The translations under genes and the position numbers were made by a program. Positions 2,589-45,588 of a DNA stretch of 64,000 nucleotides are shown here, piece by piece (within the stretch, counting starts at the first letter, position 1; the number at the start of each line of letters is the position of its first letter). Under the pieces are notes generated by a model, which saw only the letters and a list, made by a program, of their open reading frames with translations, was not told where the DNA came from and ran no database searches. Location of the stretch: assembly GCA_016186115.1 (NCBI GenBank), contig JACPMK010000003.1:154470-218469 (forward strand), in the 5' to 3' direction. Origin of the DNA: Candidatus Wildermuthbacteria bacterium (GTDB taxonomy: Bacteria; Patescibacteriota; Minisyncoccia; Minisyncoccales; UBA10102).

Positions 2589-3665
2589 ATGAATACACAT
2601 CCTTTTATAGAGGTTGCTGGGAGAAAGATTGGGCTCGGTTACCCCTCCTTTATTATTGCCGAGCTTTCTTGTAATCATCTCCAACAACTTGACAAGGCGA
2701 AGGAAATTATTAGGGCAGCAGCGGCTGCGGGCGCCGATGCGATTAAACTTCAAACTTATACCGCCGATACCATTACCATCGACTCCAGAAAGCCAGATTT
2801 TCTAGCAGGGGGCGCCGATAATCCGAGCGACTGGAATCAGCAGACCCTGTATGGACTTTACCAGCAAGCTTATACTCCTTGGGAATGGCACGCAGAATTA
2901 AAGCAACTCATTGAGGATCTTGGGATGATTTTTTTCTCAACGCCTTCTGACGACACCGCAGTTGATTTTCTGGAAGAACTCGGGACACCTTGCTATAAAA
3001 TTGCTTCGTATGCCGCAACGCATATTCCTTTGCTTGAGAGGGTAGCAAAGACCCATAAACCAGTTATCCTTTCGACTGGTTTTGCTACTTTGGAAGAAAT
3101 TGAGCTTGCCGTGCAAACGCTTAGAGAAAATGGGGCACAACAGATTGCATTACTGCATTGTATTACTACATATGCGAAGGATCCTGATTCAGGGATTATG
3201 AATCTTCGTACTATCTCTGATCTAGGGGAACGTTTTGGAGTTGTCAGCGGATTTTCAGATAATAATGCCGGCATCGAAATTCCTATTATGGCAGTGTGCG
3301 CAGGAGCTTCCATTGTTGAAAAACATCTCATGCTGCAGCATGCCGATGAAAGTTTTGATGCGCAATTTTCTTTGGATCCGTCTGAACTCAAAGAGATGGT
3401 TTCAAGGATTCGTCATTTCGAACGCCTTCTTGGGCAAGTGCATTATGGCCCCGCAAATGCTTCAGAAGAGCATAACTTAAGATATCGTCACTCTATTTAC
3501 GTAGTAAAAGATATGAAGGCGGGAGATGTTTTCACGCCAGGGAATATACGAGTGATCCGGCCGGCATTCGGACTTGCTCCAAAGCACTACAAGAATATCC
3601 TCGGGAAGTCTGCTAAAAAAGATATTGAACGCGGAACTCGCCTCTCTTGGGAATTAATTTCTTGA
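2589..3665 (+). CDS. pseI: Pseudaminic acid synthase (NeuB/PseI family nonulosonic acid synthase)
   Basis: SFIIAELSCNH...GADAIKLQTYT...YKIASYA...VILSTG...GFSDN...IVEKH plus a C-terminal SAF-like domain (VRPAFGL...KDIERG). It is collinear with the PseI sequence I recall. Confidence 0.85.
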   Translation: MNTHPFIEVAGRKIGLGYPSFIIAELSCNHLQQLDKAKEIIRAAAAAGADAIKLQTYTADTITIDSRKPDFLAGGADNPSDWNQQTLYGLYQQAYTPWEWHAELKQLIEDLGMIFFSTPSDDTAVDFLEELGTPCYKIASYAATHIPLLERVAKTHKPVILSTGFATLEEIELAVQTLRENGAQQIALLHCITTYAKDPDSGIMNLRTISDLGERFGVVSGFSDNNAGIEIPIMAVCAGASIVEKHLMLQHADESFDAQFSLDPSELKEMVSRIRHFERLLGQVHYGPANASEEHNLRYRHSIYVVKDMKAGDVFTPGNIRVIRPAFGLAPKHYKNILGKSAKKDIERGTRLSWELIS

Positions 3666-3670
3666 TCTCT

Positions 3671-4378
3671 ATGACGATAGCGCAAGCAGGAATAAAACCG
3701 CGCATCTTAGTCATAGCGGCGCACCCGGATGACGAAATTTTAGGTTGTGGGGCAACGCTCGCCCGCTACATCCGCAGGGGAATTGAGGCGCACGGTTTTA
3801 TTCTTGGGAAGGGGAAGTCCTCCCGCTTTGCGAATCCAGGAAATTCTGCCGAGACAATTCAAAAAGAACAGGACATTCTTCTGGAAGAAGCGCACAAAGC
3901 CGCCAGTATTATTGGAATTTCTCGTCTTTCCTTTGCTGATTTTCCGGATCAACGATACGATTCCGTACCATTTTTGGAGATTGTGCAGCGCATAGAAGAT
4001 ATGGTGGAGCAGGTGAAGCCGTCCATTGTCTTTACTCACTATCGGCGCGATCTTAATTTGGATCATCGAATTACGTTAAAAGCCGTGCTTACAGCTGTCC
4101 GTCCTCTCCCGGAACAATCTGTACGACATATCTATTCTTTCGAAGTGCCTTCTTCCACCGAATGGAACGTTCCTTTATCCTTTTCTCCAAATGTATTTAT
4201 TGACGTGAAAGAAACCTTTGACCAAAAACTTGCTGCCCTTCAGGCATACGAGAGCGAAATGCGGGAATACCCTCATCCCCGTTCGATGCGAGCAATAGAA
4301 ATTATCGCAAGACGATGGGGGACTATTGTTGGCAAAGAGTTGGTGGAGGCATTTGAACTCGTGCGCGAGATAAAATAG
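3671..4378 (+). CDS. PIG-L/LmbE-family sugar N-deacetylase (copy 1)
   Basis: ILVIAAHPDDEILGCG motif. The ATG at 3671 is preferred over the TTG at 3647. It is a paralog of 24227-24886. Confidence 0.8.
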   Translation: MTIAQAGIKPRILVIAAHPDDEILGCGATLARYIRRGIEAHGFILGKGKSSRFANPGNSAETIQKEQDILLEEAHKAASIIGISRLSFADFPDQRYDSVPFLEIVQRIEDMVEQVKPSIVFTHYRRDLNLDHRITLKAVLTAVRPLPEQSVRHIYSFEVPSSTEWNVPLSFSPNVFIDVKETFDQKLAALQAYESEMREYPHPRSMRAIEIIARRWGTIVGKELVEAFELVREIK

Positions 4379-4384
4379 TGGAAT

Positions 4385-5875
4385 ATGCAAAGTGAACCGA
4401 TATCTTCTCTTCGACAGGAAATTGTCAAACATATTGCGCAGTTTTCTTTTGGGACCCTCATAAAGGGCATAGGCCAGTTCGTCAATCAATATGTTGCCGC
4501 ACTTTTGTTGGGTCCAGCTATCTTTGGCGTATGGCAGGGAGCACGATTATTGTTAGGATATGGGACGAATGTCGGCTTGGGGACCATCGAGGGCATGCAA
4601 AAAGAAATTCCTGTGTTGCGGGGGAGGGGAAACCAAGAAAAAGTATTGACCATTGCCCGCACCTCTTTCTTCTTTAATTTCGCAGCAACTCTTTTTTTAT
4701 CTATCGTAATTTTATTGAGCAGTTTTTTTATACATGCAGGGCAGGAAATGATTCTCGCACTCCGTTTTATAAGTGTATTGCTCGTTTTGCAGTTTTTAAA
4801 AATGTTTTATGAGACGTGGCTGAAGGCACACAAGAAGTTTGACACTTTGAGCGTTGTTGCGGCGATCGACGGAATCGGTTTTCTCGCTTCTCTTACTCTC
4901 ATTTTCTTTTATTCTTTTCTCGGGTTTCTTTTAGGATACGTATTCACAATGCTGGCGAGTACGGCATATGCAATGGGGAAGAGCGAATACAAATTTGCTC
5001 TTGGATTGGATGGGAAAACTCTTCGCTCCCTTATGATTATTGGTTTTCCTATCATGCTGATCGGATTTTCTGGAATGGGTTTTCAAACAATCGATCGCGT
5101 CCTCATTCTAGGATTTCTCGGCGCCGCATCTTTAGGGGAATACAGTTTGGGCTGGCTCCTTTTTATGCCTTTCACATTTCTTATCTATACCGTAAATTCA
5201 GTTATGTTTCCGCATTTTGCCGAGCGCTTCGGGGCAAAAGGAACCGATGGCGCACTTTTGAATTTTATTGTTGTGCCCATTCAGTATGTAGCGCTTATTA
5301 TGCCTACTCTTATCGGAGCAATTGTGATTGCTTTGCCAGAACTTGTTCCTCTCTTTCTACCAGCGTATGAAAAGGGAGTTTTGGCGGCGCAAATTTTTCT
5401 TTTTGGGTCTTTTTTTATATCTACGGTTGGCATGGCCGGCAATTTTTTTATTTCCACCAACCGGCAAAATTTCTATCTTCTTATTCTCGCAGCGAGTTTC
5501 GCTTTAAATTTTGTCTTGAGCATATTTTTTTTATCGCTCGGCCTTGGAATCGTTGGAGTCGCATGGGGAGCAGCTCTTTCCTATTTTTTCTTCTTCATCG
5601 CAATGATTGTTCTATCGTTAAGATATTGTGGAGCTTTGAGAAATGAAATTATGAACAGAGTTGGTAAGTTTCTTTTTCCCGTATTGTATAGTATCCTTTT
5701 ATCAATACTGGTGATGGTTTTTATTAAGACAGATAAAAATGCTCAAGGAGCAACAGCTGCAATGCAGACGATCCTGGCTCGGGAATCCATCTTTTTTCTT
5801 TTTAGTTCATATTTGGTTTATCTTTTTTTAAAAAATATGAAATCTTCTCTTCCCCGCTTTTCATGGAAAAAATAG
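4385..5875 (+). CDS. Wzx-like polysaccharide flippase (MOP superfamily), copy 1
   Basis: 496 aa with about 12-14 TM segments, in polysaccharide-cluster context. Confidence 0.7.
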   Translation: MQSEPISSLRQEIVKHIAQFSFGTLIKGIGQFVNQYVAALLLGPAIFGVWQGARLLLGYGTNVGLGTIEGMQKEIPVLRGRGNQEKVLTIARTSFFFNFAATLFLSIVILLSSFFIHAGQEMILALRFISVLLVLQFLKMFYETWLKAHKKFDTLSVVAAIDGIGFLASLTLIFFYSFLGFLLGYVFTMLASTAYAMGKSEYKFALGLDGKTLRSLMIIGFPIMLIGFSGMGFQTIDRVLILGFLGAASLGEYSLGWLLFMPFTFLIYTVNSVMFPHFAERFGAKGTDGALLNFIVVPIQYVALIMPTLIGAIVIALPELVPLFLPAYEKGVLAAQIFLFGSFFISTVGMAGNFFISTNRQNFYLLILAASFALNFVLSIFFLSLGLGIVGVAWGAALSYFFFFIAMIVLSLRYCGALRNEIMNRVGKFLFPVLYSILLSILVMVFIKTDKNAQGATAAMQTILARESIFFLFSSYLVYLFLKNMKSSLPRFSWKK

Positions 5876-39755: not shown

Positions 39756-42248
39756 ATGTCTTTTCTGGCGAAATTATTTCGCAATGTCGCCCAAGGCGAT
39801 TTGCGGACATTTAATTCTGTTATCTCTGCAATAAATGCCCTTGAGAATCAATGGGCTGTTTTTTCATCAGAACAATTGAAAGAAAAAACCAAAGAACTTA
39901 AAGAAGAACTTCGCAGTGGCAAATCTCTTGACGACGTATTGCCCGAGGCCTTTGCTCAAGTTCGTGAGGCAGCAAAACGCACCTTAGGGCAGCGGCATTT
40001 TGACGTTCAGCTCATGGGCGGTATTGTTTTGCATCAAGGAAAGATCGCTGAAATGAAAACAGGAGAAGGAAAGACCCTTGCTGCAACATTACCCGCGTAT
40101 CTCAATGCGCTTGAGGAAAAAGGCGTGCATATTGTGACAGTAAATGATTATCTTGCAAAACGGGACACGGTCTGGATGGGGCAGATTTACCATGCACTTG
40201 GTTTAGCCGTGGGATGTATCACGCATGACGCATCGTACCTGTACGATCCTCATTATACATCCCAAATCCCAATGGCCAATGACCAAAATACGGAGCGAGA
40301 CAAAGAGCGTGACACAGTGGGCGGGTTCAAAGTGATCGAGAGTTATCTGCGACCGGTTTCGCGCAAAGAGGCCTATGCCGCTGACATTACCTATGGCACC
40401 AACAATGAATTTGGATTCGACTATTTGCGAGATAACATGATGTATAATCTGGAGGAGCGGGTGCAGCGAGAACACCAATTCGCAATCATTGATGAAATCG
40501 ACTCGATTTTGATTGATGAATCGAGAACTCCTTTAATTATATCTGCTCCAGACGAGGAAAGTTCTAAATGGTATTATGATTTTGCGCATCTGATTCCTCA
40601 TCTGGTCGCAAAAGAGGATTACGAGGTCGATGAAAAACTCAAAGCAGTTACACTTACAGAACAGGGTGTCAACAAAGTTGAGCAATTGCTTGGCGTGAAA
40701 GATATTTATGAAGAGAAAGGAATTAAATATCTTCATCATTTGGAGCAAGCGCTCCGAGCCCAGGTATTATTTCAGTGCGACCGTGATTATGTGGTCCGCA
40801 ATGGCGAGGTGATTATTGTAGATGAGTTTACGGGCCGTCTCTTGCCCGGTCGGAGATTTTCCGGCGGGCTTCATCAGGCATTGGAGGCAAAGGAAGGCGT
40901 CAAAGTGCAGCCAGAATCAATCACCTTGGCTTCCATTACCTTTCAGAATTATTTTCGAACGTATAAAAAATTAGCAGGTATGACCGGAACCGCAGAAACC
41001 TCTGCAGAAGAATTTCATAAGGTCTACAACTTGGAAGTAGTCGTTGTTCCAACCAATAAATTAATGATTCGAAAGGATTTGCCTGATCAAATTTATAAAA
41101 CCGCACAAGCGAAATTCGAGGCAGTTGCAAAACAAGTAAAAGAACTTCACGACAAGGGGCAGCCGGTTCTTATTGGCACGGTCTCAATCCAAAAGAATGA
41201 ATATTTGAGTAAATTACTGGAGCGGGAAGGAGTTCCGCATCAGGTTCTCAATGCCAAGCATCATGAAAAAGAAGGAGAAATTATCGCTCAAGCCGGGCGT
41301 CTGGGCGCAGTGACCGTTGCCACCAACATGGCAGGCCGCGGTGTGGATATCATCCTCGGGGGGAACCCGCAGGTTCCCGGAGATGTGGAGCGGTGCAGAA
41401 GCATTGGGGGGCTCCATGTGATTGGAACCGAGCGCCACGAAGCACGAAGAATCGACAATCAGCTTCGCGGAAGATCGGGGAGGCAAGGTGATCCCGGTTC
41501 CTCTCAATTTTTTGTTTCTTTGGAAGACGATCTCATCCGAATCTTTGGAGGCGATCGTATTGCAAAAATTATGGATCGTTTGCATTTGCCGGAAGATCAG
41601 CCCATTGAGTCGGGAATTATTTCCCATGCCATTGAGTCAGCGCAATCACGGATCGAGGGCATGAACTTCGATACCAGAAAACACCTTCTTGATTTTGACG
41701 ACGTGCTCAACAAGCACAGGGATGTAATATATAGGAAGCGAAAAGAAATTCTTGAGAAGGCCCAAGTGCAGGATTCGAATAACCCCGCGAGTTTAAAAGC
41801 GTATCTGCTTCCATTCTGTGAGCAGCACGGCTACACGCGGGAAGATTATGAAAAGAAAGAAAAAGAGCTGGGCCAAGAAAATATGCGGCAAGCCGAGAAG
41901 ATTGTTGCATTGCGCGCCATTGATTCGTTGTGGGTTGAACATTTGGAAAACATGGAGCAGTTGCGCGACTCGGTGCGGCTGCGCGCCTATGGCCAGCAGG
42001 ATCCCTTGGTGGAGTACAAACACGAGGGTCACCAAATGTTTCAGAATCTTCTTGCTACTATGGAAGAATTGATCGCGAATTCTTTGATGCGTGTCCAGAT
42101 CGCCCCTCGACAGAACTCGGGGCAAGCCCCCCAAACTTCGCAGCAGATGGCATCTGTACGATCTCCGAACGCTGCTCCCAAGGTTGGCAGAAATGATCCT
42201 TGCCCCTGCGGAAGCGGTTTAAAGTATAAAAAGTGCCACGGGAAATAA
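39756..42248 (+). CDS. secA: Preprotein translocase ATPase SecA
   Basis: MKTGEGKTL Walker [40 protein letters not shown], and the C-terminal zinc tail [15 protein letters not shown]. Confidence 0.95.
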
Positions 42249-42249
42249 T

Positions 42250-42423
42250 ATGGCAATAAAACCAAAATGCGACAAATGTAAAAAGGAGTTGAAAGAATTT
42301 GGAGGAATTCTATTGAGTCCACCAAAGAAGAATGTGGTGAAGAAATTTCACCTATGCCAAAAATGTTATTATGAGATTTCTCGTGGCCTGGGTAAGAAAT
42401 ATAAGAAGTGTCATGGAAAATAG
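42250..42423 (+). CDS. 57-aa zinc-ribbon-like protein ending in a SecA-tail-like motif (..[10 protein letters not shown])
   Basis: The ATG lies 1 nt after the secA stop. The sequence is [57 protein letters not shown], with CxxC at residues 7-10 and 35-38. The stop is 1 nt before the next ATG. Confidence 0.5.
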
Positions 42424-42424
42424 C

Positions 42425-42646
42425 ATGATCAAATTAGGAAAATACCGACACTACAAAGGAAAAGAGTATGAAGTTATAGGTGCTGCGCGACACAGCGAAA
42501 CGCTGGAAGAATTGGTGATTTATCGAGCATTATATGGAAATTTTGACCTGTGGGCGCGGCCACTGAAGATGTTTTTGGAGGAAGTAGAAGTTGATGGTAA
42601 AAAGATGCCACGATTTCAATATTTGGGTGATCCGCGTGGCAATTAG
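42425..42646 (+). CDS. DUF1653-family small protein
   Basis: [52 protein letters not shown] matches the DUF1653 pattern. The ATG at 42425 is preferred. Confidence 0.7.
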
Positions 42647-42711
42647 CATTAAAGATGTCATGGGAAATAAAGCGGAGTGCTCGCAGAGATAAAATTTGTT
42701 AAGATAGCAAT

Positions 42712-43141
42712 ATGAAGACAAGAAAGCGAAAAACAGTATCTTCTAAGTCCGCTCAGGAGATTCAGGACGATATTTTTCGAAAGATGTCTGCCGATAGAAA
42801 ATTTGCCACAGCAGCGCGCTTATCAATGTTTTGTTTGAAATTACATGCATTACATCACCATGCCGCACGAAATAGTGGATCCTAGAAAAGTAGTGGTACA
42901 GATAGCGAGTATATTTGATAACGTTAAAATTCCTTACTTTATAACCGGCGGCTTCGCCGTTTCTGTCTGGGGGCGGCCGCGCGCAACTTTCGATATCGAT
43001 ATTGTAGTAGAGCTTACCGAACCAAAGCAGATTGGCCCATTTGCTTCGGAAGTGCTTACGCTTGGCCTTCCAGATGAAAATGGAGAAGTTATTTTATTAA
43101 CCCCGACCGCAAAAGTTCCTAACGGCGGGAAAATGTTTTGA
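42712..43141 (+). pseudogene. Probable frameshifted/decayed nucleotidyltransferase-domain gene (two overlapping reading frames)
   Basis: Frame 1 (42712-42885) encodes a 57-aa N-terminal piece. Frame 2 (42845-43141) encodes IPYFITGGFAVSVWGRPRATFDIDIVVEL, an NTase-fold GG...DxD, and ends prematurely. Short ORF debris follows to about 43300. Confidence 0.35.
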
Positions 43142-43300
43142 TATGATGGATGAATTGATCGATTTGAATGTTCCAGAAAAACTCGCTTATCCCTTAAAGC
43201 TTTCCTGCGAACATATTTTCAAATTGAGCAGAATGTAAAAATGGAACTTAAGAAATTGATTGTTGATGTGAAGGTGCAGGATTTAGAAAAATGAGATAAG

Positions 43301-43329
43301 TTGAGACAGGCTAAGCCTGTCTATATAAT
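43301..43329 (+). promoter_or_regulatory. sigma70-like promoter (TTGAGA-17nt-TATAAT) with a 19-nt palindrome in the spacer
   Basis: -35 at 43301-43306 and -10 at 43324-43329. The palindrome agacaggctaagcctgtct spans 43304-43322. The ATG at 43338 is 8 nt after the -10. Confidence 0.5.
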
Positions 43330-43337
43330 ATAGAGGT

Positions 43338-43802
43338 ATGTTGCGAGGTTTGGTAAAATTCACGACGATTCTGGCAGCCTTTTTGATTGGAGTTGTGGTT
43401 GGGGGATATTTGTTTGCAGATAGCCAGCCGAGATCATTTCTCGCTATTCCCGATTGCAGAGATCGTTGTCTTGATGCAAATGAGCTGACGGGACTGCTGG
43501 GATCAATAGGGATTCAGCGATTCAATGGACTGGTTCCGCTCATGGTGAAGGAAACCGAAAAAACAGTAGTCATCAAGCATCCGTTTCCTCAAGCCCCGGT
43601 TCATTACGTGATTATTCCCAAAAAAGACATCCGGAATATCGCGGAATTAGAAGAAGCGGATCAGGAATATATCGTTGATGCGTTGGCAGTTGCAGGAGAG
43701 CTTGCGCGGCAGGAAAAATTGGTGAAGTATCGCATTCTGACCAATGGCCCCGGCTATCAGTCGGTCGCGTATTTGCACTTCCACCTTATGGGAAATAGAT
43801 GA
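43338..43802 (+). CDS. HIT-family (histidine triad) protein with N-terminal membrane anchor
   Basis: An N-terminal hydrophobic helix. The C-terminal NGPGYQSVAYLHFHLMG is a variant triad with Y in place of the first His. Confidence 0.65.
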   Translation: MLRGLVKFTTILAAFLIGVVVGGYLFADSQPRSFLAIPDCRDRCLDANELTGLLGSIGIQRFNGLVPLMVKETEKTVVIKHPFPQAPVHYVIIPKKDIRNIAELEEADQEYIVDALAVAGELARQEKLVKYRILTNGPGYQSVAYLHFHLMGNR

Positions 43803-43803
43803 T

Positions 43804-44115
43804 ATGAAAATAGAAATTGACCTCACAAAAATCAGAGAGAATCTACGCAATGCGATGCGGGAATGCGGTTATGCGCCGGAAGGAGTAGAGGAATCGACAG
43901 GCGAGTTGAAGTTTTTTCGTTCTATTCGCGGAGGGCGCTATCCAAGATTTCATATATATTGTAGGGTTTTACCCGACGATACCAAGGCGGTTTTGAATCT
44001 GCATTTAGATCAGAAGCAGCCGAGCTATGCCGGATCTGCGGCGCATAGTGGCGAGTACGAGGGTTCTGTTGTCGAGGCCGAAGCCGCCCGCATCCAATCG
44101 CATCTTTACTTTTAA
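43804..44115 (+). CDS. Conserved-looking hypothetical protein (103 aa)
   Basis: The ATG is 1 nt after the upstream stop. The protein is soluble (RFHIYCRV...LHLDQKQPSY...AHSGEYEG). No family was recognised. Confidence 0.5.
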   Translation: MKIEIDLTKIRENLRNAMRECGYAPEGVEESTGELKFFRSIRGGRYPRFHIYCRVLPDDTKAVLNLHLDQKQPSYAGSAAHSGEYEGSVVEAEAARIQSHLYF

Positions 44116-44148
44116 GCAATTCGATGGTATCGTATAGAGGACTCTTTC

Positions 44149-45588
44149 ATGAGAAAACGTACACTTGGTGCGGTTCTATTTTGTATTATACTTTTGGGAA
44201 TTGCTGCTGCTGTTTTTGTATTTCCTAATGAAGTCAATCGCGGGATTGACTTTTTTAATGCAAAAAGAGATCAAATTTCGAAATTGCAATGGCTGCCCCA
44301 CATCCGGCAGGTTCCCAATGTGCCTTTTCGTTTTGGTTTGGATCTGCGAGGCGGAGCCCAACTCACCTATCAAGCCGATCTTTCAAATGTTCAGAAGTCC
44401 GAATACGACGCAAAGATGCAGGGATTGCGAGATATTATTGAGCGAAGAGTGAATTTCTTTGGAGTTGTGGAGCCCAATATTCAGATTGAGGGTTCTGGAG
44501 ATGACCAGCGGCTTGTCGTTGATCTGCCCGGAGTTACCAATGCAGAGCAGGCAAATAAACTTGTGACAAGCGCCCCATTTCTGGAGTTCAAGGAGCGTCT
44601 TTCTGTTGATCAGACAAAAGAAATTTTGAAGGAGTTTCTTGGAGATCAAAGCGACCAAGCAGATCCCGAAACGCTCTGCAGAACTTCTATTTTTTTGAGA
44701 TCATTTATCGCTGCCTATCGGACAGATCCCTGTTTCCAATCAGTTGGCCTGACGGGCGCACAATTGAAGCGGGCGGATGTGGATTTTCAACAACTTCCGA
44801 GTCAGCCGGCGGTTTCTCTTCAGTTTAATGAAGAAGGAGCAAAAATTTTTGAGGAAATTACAGGAAGAAATATTCAAAAACCAGTGGCAATTTATCTCGA
44901 TGGGCAACCCGTACAAATTGCTACTGTTCAGGAAAAGATTTCGGGAGGTCAGGCGCAAATCACAGGGATTGCTTCTCTTGATGAGGCCCGTCAGCTGGTG
45001 CGGAATTTAAATGCAGGAGCAATTCCCGTATCTATTACATTAATTTCGCAGAGAACTTTAGGTCCAACGCTTGGAGCCCTTTCTTTGCAGCAGAGCTTAA
45101 GGGCCGGGATTGGAGGGCTTGCTGCCGTGCTTGGATTTATGATTTTGTTCTATCGATTGCCGGGTTTGCTCGCAAGTATCGCCCTTATGCTTTACGTGCT
45201 ATTTTTGCTTGCGTCCTTCAAAATTTTTTCTGTTACGCTTTCTTTGGCCGGGATCGCAGGAGTTATCCTTTCGATCGGCATGGCAGTGGACGCGAACATT
45301 CTTGTGTTTGCCAGAATGCGTGAGGAAATGCGGGAGGGAAAAGGTTTTTCTGCGGCGTTGAGCGAAGGATTCCGCCGGGCATGGCCCTCGATTCGCGATG
45401 GCAACCTTACTACAATTCTCACCACAGTCATCCTGTTTCTCCTTGGTTCTTCTTTCGTGCAGGGATTTGCGGTCACATTGCTTTTGGGTATTCTCTTGAG
45501 CATGTTTTCTGCGCTTGTTGTCACGAGAATTCTTTTGCGCATGTTCGAGGGAACCCGCTTATCGAACCTTAAGCGATTATGGATATAA
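44149..45588 (+). CDS. secD: Protein-export membrane protein SecD
   Basis: LGLDLRGG..., a periplasmic P1 domain, and a C-terminal 6-TM region with GIAGVILSIGMAVDANILVFARMREE. Confidence 0.9.
   Translation: MRKRTLGAVLFCIILLGIAAAVFVFPNEVNRGIDFFNAKRDQISKLQWLPHIRQVPNVPFRFGLDLRGGAQLTYQADLSNVQKSEYDAKMQGLRDIIERRVNFFGVVEPNIQIEGSGDDQRLVVDLPGVTNAEQANKLVTSAPFLEFKERLSVDQTKEILKEFLGDQSDQADPETLCRTSIFLRSFIAAYRTDPCFQSVGLTGAQLKRADVDFQQLPSQPAVSLQFNEEGAKIFEEITGRNIQKPVAIYLDGQPVQIATVQEKISGGQAQITGIASLDEARQLVRNLNAGAIPVSITLISQRTLGPTLGALSLQQSLRAGIGGLAAVLGFMILFYRLPGLLASIALMLYVLFLLASFKIFSVTLSLAGIAGVILSIGMAVDANILVFARMREEMREGKGFSAALSEGFRRAWPSIRDGNLTTILTTVILFLLGSSFVQGFAVTLLLGILLSMFSALVVTRILLRMFEGTRLSNLKRLWI

Follow-up and report, generated by a model that had tools for sequence, protein, structure and literature searches.

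The prophage e14 of Escherichia coli is flanked by icd and icdC, two copies that differ from each other mostly by synonymous and conservative changes (PMC13626634). The metal-binding domain of SecA consists of a CXCX8CH (or CC) motif together with a conserved Ser and a conserved Tyr, and the E. coli proteins YecA and YchJ, which bind metal, have this motif in full (CXCX8CH/C), conserved Ser included (10.1101/613315). The locus described here bears on both precedents. It lies in a 64-kb stretch of Candidatus Wildermuthbacteria DNA (64,000 nucleotides (nt) of contig JACPMK010000003.1, hereafter the window), in which secA is followed by a 57-amino-acid (aa) zinc-ribbon open reading frame (ORF) and then by a gene for a DUF1653 protein. 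The small ORF belongs to an unnamed zinc-ribbon family of about 50 aa, called zr in this report. The three consecutive gene ends, those of secA, zr and the DUF1653 gene, each hold a copy of the secA end, in a condition that worsens in that order. With moderate confidence, the C-terminal tail of zr is taken to be the translated remnant of a duplicated secA 3' end and not an independent metal-binding module.

Copies of the secA end behind secA

The secA gene (39756-42248, + strand) encodes 830 aa and retains a complete C-terminal SEC-C metal-binding motif, ending in KYKKCHGK before the stop. Its product matches the Pfam families SecA_DEAD (1.6e-122) and SEC-C (3.5e-10, 40 bits, profile positions 1-19) and is 100% identical to the NCBI protein of a Candidatus Wildermuthbacteria metagenome-assembled genome, the next-best SecA being 71% identical. 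The first copy of the tail (copy 1, 42222-42248, +) is formed by the final eight codons and the stop of secA itself, AAG TAT AAA AAG TGC CAC GGG AAA TAA. One nucleotide past this stop lies the ATG of zr (42250-42423, +), whose product has Cys at positions 7, 10, 36 and 39 and is composed of a conserved core of about 50 aa and a 7-codon tail extension (YKKCHGK); it too ends in KYKKCHGK. The in-frame C-terminus of zr is copy 2 (42397-42423, +), which reads AAA TAT AAG AAG TGT CAT GGA AAA TAG. The DUF1653 gene (42425-42646, +, 73 aa) starts 1 nt past the zr stop, and its product passes the threshold of PF07866 (1.2e-32, 112 bits, profile positions 1-61 of 62) and matches the PDB entry 3be3, deposited as an uncharacterized protein, at 9.3e-10. 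Spanning the DUF1653 stop, the decayed copy 3 (42638-42670, +) stands in the same register as copies 1 and 2 with its 3' half intact; its letters are GGC AAT TAG CAT TAA AGA TGT CAT GGG AAA TAA, read as G, N, stop, H, stop, R, C, H, G, K, stop. The secA end, the CxxC...CxxC ORF, the shared tail and the 1-nt spacings, all reported in an earlier note on this DNA, are confirmed from the ORFs and the sequence. That the note called the ORF unannotated fits the assembly collection, which lists no gene for this product; the third tail copy had escaped the note.

Two sites in the window, and no others, match the degenerate 27-mer AARTAYAARAARTGYCAYGGNAAATAR (42222-42248 and 42397-42423). A chance resemblance of the tail copies was considered and set aside, the 27-mer having no match in 100 shuffles. 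In copy 3, the 18-mer at 42653-42670 carries one mismatch, the expectation being 0.25 matches per window at ≤2 mismatches. Repeat identity among copies is 70-93%. Copies 1 and 2 differ at 6/27 bases (78% identity), and all six differences are synonymous or stop-to-stop, in agreement with the earlier description; Nei-Gojobori counting gives 5 synonymous and 0 non-synonymous differences (3.3 synonymous sites, S, and 20.7 non-synonymous sites, N). A recent tandem duplication of the genome's own secA tail is ruled out by this 78% identity and by the saturation of the synonymous sites.

In relatives, the interval between secA and zr is occupied by inserts of several types (toxin-antitoxin, NUDIX, SET-domain and others), and a copy of 27-60 nt from the end of secA borders each of them. 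In locus L009, secA is followed by a 531-nt toxin-antitoxin block (3627-4157), a 60-nt copy of the coding end of the metal-binding domain (50/60 identical) and zr, the insertion extending from exactly after the secA stop up to the zr start; in L095, a relative of L009, zr stands directly behind secA. L004 and L090 contain hicAB inserts with relic tails. In L087, three copies lie between the successive members of the series secA, toxin-antitoxin pair, SET-domain gene and zr. L149 contains four tail copies, and L177, whose secA array lacks zr, contains two relics. The site is empty in L176, where secD follows secA after 90 nt, the corresponding interval in the window measuring 1.9 kb. The common gene order is murB, AdoMet decarboxylase, secA, a variable segment and secD/F, at least partly seen in the Wildermuthbacteria-like loci L175-L177. 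Across 39 non-redundant loci, the 3 kb downstream of secA hold 20 extra tail 18-mers on the coding strand, compared with 0 on the opposite strand and 0 and 1 in equal-length upstream regions of the 39 loci. The copies also co-vary within a genome, both L001 copies showing F..Q and both L034 copies a terminal HGQ; the two L034 copies are 83% identical over 42 nt.

No integrase family is present among the window ORFs from secA to secD or in the Pfam lists of the L001, L004 and L174-L177 arrays. An attC-like hairpin is absent from three junctions, where the single-strand DNA fold gives z-scores of -1.3 to +1.1 against shuffles, and an Rfam scan of the junctions yields no known RNA element at E<=1. 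A literature search for secA as an integration site returned no useful result and no description of such a secA-secD hot spot.

Toxin-antitoxin pairs are the commonest inserts between secA and zr, lying at 5454-5913 in L004, 790-1300 in L090 and 320-700 in L087 besides the L009 block; the L004 pair is HicA/HicB by Pfam, and the L009 and L087 pairs, judged by eye, are presumably RelE-like. A variant SecA tail with an insertion between CxC and KYK (CPCGA[KT]H[PS]DGRPIKYKHCHGK) is found in L004 (5330-5430), L008 (4850-4912), L013 and L093. In L008, a relic of the classical tail lies between the variant tail and zr, which looks like a replacement of the SecA end. In L117, a tail relic outside any long ORF lies immediately upstream of zr, and a fragment of the SecA C-terminus (4535-4627) lies about 1 kb downstream of it.

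The zr family and the rarity of its tail

The zr ORF is a real, strongly conserved gene. A word-indexed search retrieves 209 homologues at 59-90% identity, a scan with one genome per species finds 226 loci, and an exhaustive profile search finds at least 1628 clusters (50% identity) at E<=1e-3, none of them with a Pfam assignment. The proteins are usually 48-53 aa long, with a median of 50. In an alignment of 65 members (A1, 59-90% identical to the window protein), the invariant positions are M1, I3, P5, C7, C10, L14, G18, L21, P24, P25, K32, H34, C36 and C39, with the blocks GGILLSPP and KFHLCxxCY, and the window ORF shares these positions, the blocks and the length of about 50 aa. For the core, the ratio of non-synonymous to synonymous divergence (dN/dS) is about 0.05-0.13 in comparisons with relatives at which synonymous sites range from half to full saturation. 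A spurious ORF is ruled out by the family size together with the purifying selection. The family is very widespread, strongly conserved, without a family assignment and often omitted from annotation.

Members occur in Patescibacteria and in DPANN archaea, the latter without SecA. Between Patescibacteria and the DPANN groups (Woese-, Pace-, Nano- and Aenigmarchaeota, Iainarchaeum), zr is 60-78% identical on contigs of 70-220 kb, with cross-domain examples in L041, L056, L062, L068 and L071, where the match always lies at 5001-5144. Genes for Orc1/Cdc6 and for an archaeal-type PheRS confirm that L068 is archaeal. For a micro-protein without a family, conservation across domains is unusual. Nine IMG/VR contigs classed as viral (L165-L173), three of them 148-437 kb long, carry zr relatives at 41-66% identity. 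Three proteins of 86-98 aa (P0241, P0251 and P0259) contain two zr units per polypeptide, which suggests tandem duplication of the zr micro-gene, and in L149 a 5'-truncated zr copy with its tail (3480-3546) stands immediately before a complete zr. Domain fusions among the longer zr homologues are limited to one with DUF1653 and a partial one with Fpg.

Comparison of zr with Pfam and NCBIfam gives no match above the cut-offs; PHROGs returns matches only at E>=0.027 and PADLOC none. The AlphaFold model, which like all such models carries no metals, has a mean predicted local distance difference test score (pLDDT) of 77 and a value of 53 over residues 51-57, and Foldseek finds no PDB match to it at E<=0.001. 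A sequence profile search of the PDB gives only a weak uS14 motif (E=0.03 over 16 residues). An identity as zinc-type uS14 was rejected, NCBIfam NF004424 scoring 14.3 bits against a cut-off of 54 with no full-length match. Judging from the fold class and the weak uS14-like motif, zr could possibly bind nucleic acid or the ribosome.

In the tail of zr, only the distal Cys-His pair of the SecA motif is present. The CxC pair is absent, with Arg at the position of the second Cys, and Leu replaces the conserved Ser (E. coli Ser-889; GLG for GSG), while the aromatic residue (Tyr-893) and the flanking basic residues are kept as KKYKK. The match to SEC-C (PF02810) reaches 14.5 bits, below the Pfam cut-off of 20.4, and covers only positions 8-19 of 19. 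A SEC-C domain was accordingly rejected, two of the four ligands and the Ser being missing and the score lying under the cut-off. As predicted from these residues, a SecA-type CXCX8CH metal site cannot form on zr, and neither can the fold of the metal-binding domain, because the CxC pair and the Ser are missing. The extension is short, basic and probably disordered. The earlier proposal of a free-standing mimic of the SecA metal-binding tail is not supported.

The tail was surveyed in 120 listed zr homologues and at about 130 distinct genomic loci, and is translated at only five of the loci: the window, L001, L002, L003 and L085. All five retain KK[YF], but three have a would-be metal ligand changed: the His is Arg in L001 and Cys in L003, and the Cys is Tyr in L085. 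The Tyr codon of the window is replaced by TAA, TGA or TAG in at least 11 close relatives (L005, L006, L086, L089, L090, L091, L013, L093, L109, L007 and L106), many of which have a second stop after it, and behind these stops K-C-H-G is still readable in some and decayed in others. The tail DNA behind zr lies in a different reading frame in L034, L146 and L117. In a weakly resolved neighbour-joining tree of zr DNA (156 columns), the window falls among the stop-bearing relatives. Tail DNA behind zr is old and widespread, and its translation is exceptional. The tail as a conserved feature of the zr family is ruled out by the five translated cases among about 130 loci, the ligand losses and the repeated stops; conservation of KYKKCHG in relatives, a search that the earlier note had proposed, is not what the loci display.

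Several untranslated relics are equally conserved as peptides. Relative to the window tail, the proportion of non-synonymous differences (pN) is 0.00 in L089, 0.08 in L109, 0.16 in L086 and 0.08 in window copy 3. The synonymous pattern is not specific to translation within zr, because these relics preserve the peptide just as well. Of the earlier statement that the tail is a selected peptide and not a recent duplication, the second part stands, given the 78% identity and the saturated sites; the inference of selection is not decisive, since the untranslated relics match.

Origin of the tail

The favoured account replaces a functional story, that of a SecA-tail mimic, with an evolutionary one. 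The secA 3' end of Wildermuthbacteria and related Parcubacteria would be a hot spot of repeated insertion, at which small genes collect before secD, each inserted block ending downstream in a duplicate of the final 27-60 nt of secA. The secA gene itself would keep a functional end, the zr frame would run into copy 2 and halt at the copied secA stop, and the copy at the DUF1653 stop would have decayed. Copies 1 and 2 would be descendants of different secA tail alleles, each selected while it was part of secA. Purely synonymous differences between them are expected because the copies would stem from secA tails on which selection had already acted, and the within-genome co-variation in L001 and L034 fits the same secA-tail origin. 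The function of zr would be independent of the tail. In many Parcubacteria zr is the gene immediately behind secA, and its translation is probably coupled to that of secA, because a single nucleotide separates the secA stop from the zr ATG. On this account, the copied end of an essential gene, once a neighbour reads into it, can produce a peptide match in which every difference is synonymous, and an insertion hot spot in the Parcubacteria secA-secD interval could help to explain gene uptake and expression in very small genomes. The repeats, their register, distribution and decay, and the empty and filled sites are observed; the mode of insertion, the coupling and the tail's lack of function are inferred.

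Several observations weigh against this account. No recombinase gene lies in or beside the arrays examined, and many array genes are housekeeping-like (NUDIX, HIT, Ham1) and not typical mobile-element cargo. The 3' half of the relics (TGY CAY GGN AAA TAA) outlasts the 5' half, where plain decay predicts otherwise. Pooled over the five translated tails, the ratio of non-synonymous to synonymous proportions (pN/pS) is 0.23 with pS near saturation, compared with a pN of 0.5-0.76 in decayed relics, so that some weak purifying selection on the translated tail is possible. The window tail is perfect (9/9 residues) despite a synonymous divergence of 0.47 from the nearest zr relative. Finally, in the neighbourhoods of 132 zr loci, secA is the sole neighbour recurring across deep divergence, being found within 1.5 kb upstream in 36/132, which could mean a functional operon. 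A tentative and rather unlikely reading would make the tail-coding end of secA the site at which an undescribed cassette system of Patescibacteria, either integrase-less or mobilised in trans, attaches. Small genes (zr, DUF1653, toxin-antitoxin pairs, NUDIX/HIT-type enzymes) would enter and be swapped behind secA, each with a SecA-compatible tail copy, so that every insertion restores SecA and the cargo is translated by coupling; zr would be the cassette with the greatest success, and its spread to DPANN archaea a sign of mobility.

Three other explanations have been weighed against the same loci. One of them, compatible with the favoured origin of the tail, holds that the tail DNA is a recombination site at which a recombinase encoded elsewhere inserts and excises cassettes, the zr peptide being a by-product; the copies would stay SecA-compatible since each exchange turns part of a cassette copy into the SecA end. 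It is unlikely: no integrase lies near any array examined, the junctions show no attC-like hairpin, repeats of this identity are poor substrates for homologous recombination, neither circular nor excised forms are seen and much of the cargo is housekeeping-like. It would nevertheless accommodate the same-strand cassette arrays with a copy behind each, the exact L009 insertion with its 60-nt duplicate beside the empty site, the co-variation of upstream and downstream copies, the relics with a mostly intact 3' half and stops in the 5' half, the occurrence of zr behind non-secA ORFs that end in a full (L002) or partial (L003, L087) SEC-C-like tail, and the spread of zr over bacteria, archaea and a few viral contigs. 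A selected peptide KKYKKCHGK that binds a partner of the SecA tail (ribosome, acidic lipid or chaperone), through which zr would modulate secretion or co-localise with SecA, is quite improbable. The intact, in-frame tail with only synonymous differences from the secA copy speaks for it, as do the pooled pN/pS, the KK[YF] kept in 5/5 and the linkage to secA, including a junction of stop, 1 nt and ATG before zr in 37/132 loci; the SecA-like C-terminal domains of E. coli YecA and YchJ, moreover, retain the SecB-binding residues of SecA (10.1101/613315). Set against these are the missing CxC pair and Ser, which make the metal-binding fold impossible, the Cys or His mutated in 3/5 translated tails, the different stops (TAA, TGA, TAG) that repeatedly cut the tail in close relatives, the equal conservation of untranslated relics, the presence of the family in archaea and the low AlphaFold confidence over the tail.

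The same peptide-binding proposal also meets the finding that zr is missing at the other Wildermuthbacteria-like secA loci examined. Among the relatives with usable context whose SecA is most similar, four (70-71% identical in SecA) keep the SecA tail and have no zr beside secA, which comes close to the outcome that the earlier note had itself named as speaking against its idea, a loss of the small ORF where the secA tail is kept. A role as a secretion regulator, also suggested there, is not supported. Least probable by far is that the DNA ...TGYCAYGGNAAATAA-N-ATG is kept as RNA, a purine-rich ribosome-binding stretch with a stop/start junction that spreads with genes in need of it. A TAAT or TAGT runs directly into the ATG of zr in 31/132 loci, including some whose upstream tail is only a relic outside ORFs (L118, L090, L146), the DUF1653 start lies 1 nt past copy 2, and the 3' half of the relics is better conserved than the 5' half. 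Variation is, however, concentrated at third codon positions, as in protein-coding sequence and unlike in an RNA signal, GGNAAA matches the Shine-Dalgarno sequence only weakly, and no start codon follows window copy 3 (41-nt gap) or the L089 relic (terminator-like hairpin).

Neighbouring genes and known systems

A DUF1653 gene lies near zr (same strand, <=1.3 kb, either side) at 12 loci and directly adjoins it in the window, L031, L162 and L164. The fusion protein P0381 (158 aa, L178 757-1233), found on one contig only, joins an N-terminal zr through a linker of about 40 residues to a C-terminal DUF1653 (Pfam 2.4e-16). The coupling of zr with DUF1653 put forward in the earlier note gains some support from these same-strand neighbours and the fusion; the link is only suggestive, because co-residence in the same secA array may explain part of it. 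A literature search on DUF1653 function found nothing useful.

The remainder of the variable secA-secD interval (42671-44148, +) holds a 57-aa ORF, a chimera of nucleotidyltransferase and CsaA, a HIT gene and a 123-aa ORF. The chimeric ORF (42845-43141, +, 98 aa) lies about 600 nt downstream of secA; its N-terminal half is nucleotidyltransferase-like, with weak AbiEii and aminoglycoside-nucleotidyltransferase matches, and residues 54-98 correspond to the C-terminal part of CsaA/tRNA-binding proteins (NCBIfam 2e-13; for the CsaA subfamily, 3e-8), of which CsaA has the annotation of an export-related chaperone. The ORF seems to be what a deletion or recombination left of a gene. The HIT-domain ORF (43338-43802, +) and the 123-aa ORF without a family (43744-44115, +) overlap by 59 nt in different frames, and the true start of the latter probably lies further downstream. 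The conserved right border of the interval is secD (44149-45588, +), a 479-aa ORF named by its position: SecD/SecF Pfam genes stand at the same place in L175 and L176, and a secD-like ORF in L008.

In six other loci (L014, L017, L018, L020, L021 and L153), zr lies downstream of a gene of about 110 aa, with a tRNA gene just downstream. By eye, the 110-aa product presumably resembles ribosome-binding factor A, and its gene is the only recurrent neighbour besides secA. In L002, an ORF at 3-377 ends in a complete SEC-C motif (CLCGSKNKFKECHGK, followed by the stop), and zr (379-582) starts 1 nt later; we take this ORF to be D-Ala-D-Ala dipeptidase-like (YPKEYWHWSFGD). The L002 zr has its own in-frame tail, of which the stop is lost (KKYEKCHGKKNEIQQISQR), and the gene start overlapping this extension is presumably MazG-like (MKYNKLVRDKIPEI).

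Among described systems, e14 at icd is the closest likeness. At icd the insert supplies a replacement 3' end, the host gene stays intact and a second copy marks the other border; secA is likewise intact, and duplicates of its final 27-60 nt flank the inserts. Direct repeats of the target 3' end surround the inserts (window copies 1-3, L009, L087, L149, L177 and L034), and an unoccupied site is found in relatives (L176; L095 compared with L009); an element-encoded site-specific recombinase is not found. The secA inserts differ from e14 in having no integrase or phage genes, in their size of 0.2-1.5 kb and in forming arrays with several copies of the secA end, one of which the unrelated gene zr runs into in frame. 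Tandem accretion of islands at tRNA genes or at the 3' ends of genes is comparable to the secA arrays. Integron arrays share with them the promoterless same-strand genes, the attachment repeat behind each, the fixed upstream site, the variable content and the empty site. Unlike integrons, the secA arrays have no IntI-type integrase or attC-like fold, and their repeat is the coding end of an essential gene.

At the protein level, zr resembles YecA and YchJ in carrying a SecA-like C-terminal KYK.CHG on a non-SecA protein, with the Tyr, the basic residues and the Cys-His pair present; unlike in those proteins, the tail is the distal half only and is absent or degenerate in nearly all homologues. 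The likeness to zinc-type uS14 is confined to a local motif (RKFHLCRICFRE) around the second CxxC of zr, which differs from uS14 in the 25 residues between its Cys pairs (about 12 in uS14), in its N-terminus and in giving no structural match. In conclusion, a duplicated gene end at an insertion site is, by analogy with e14 at icd, of a kind already known; what is new here is its place at secA, the array of copies and the conserved micro-gene whose frame takes in one of them.

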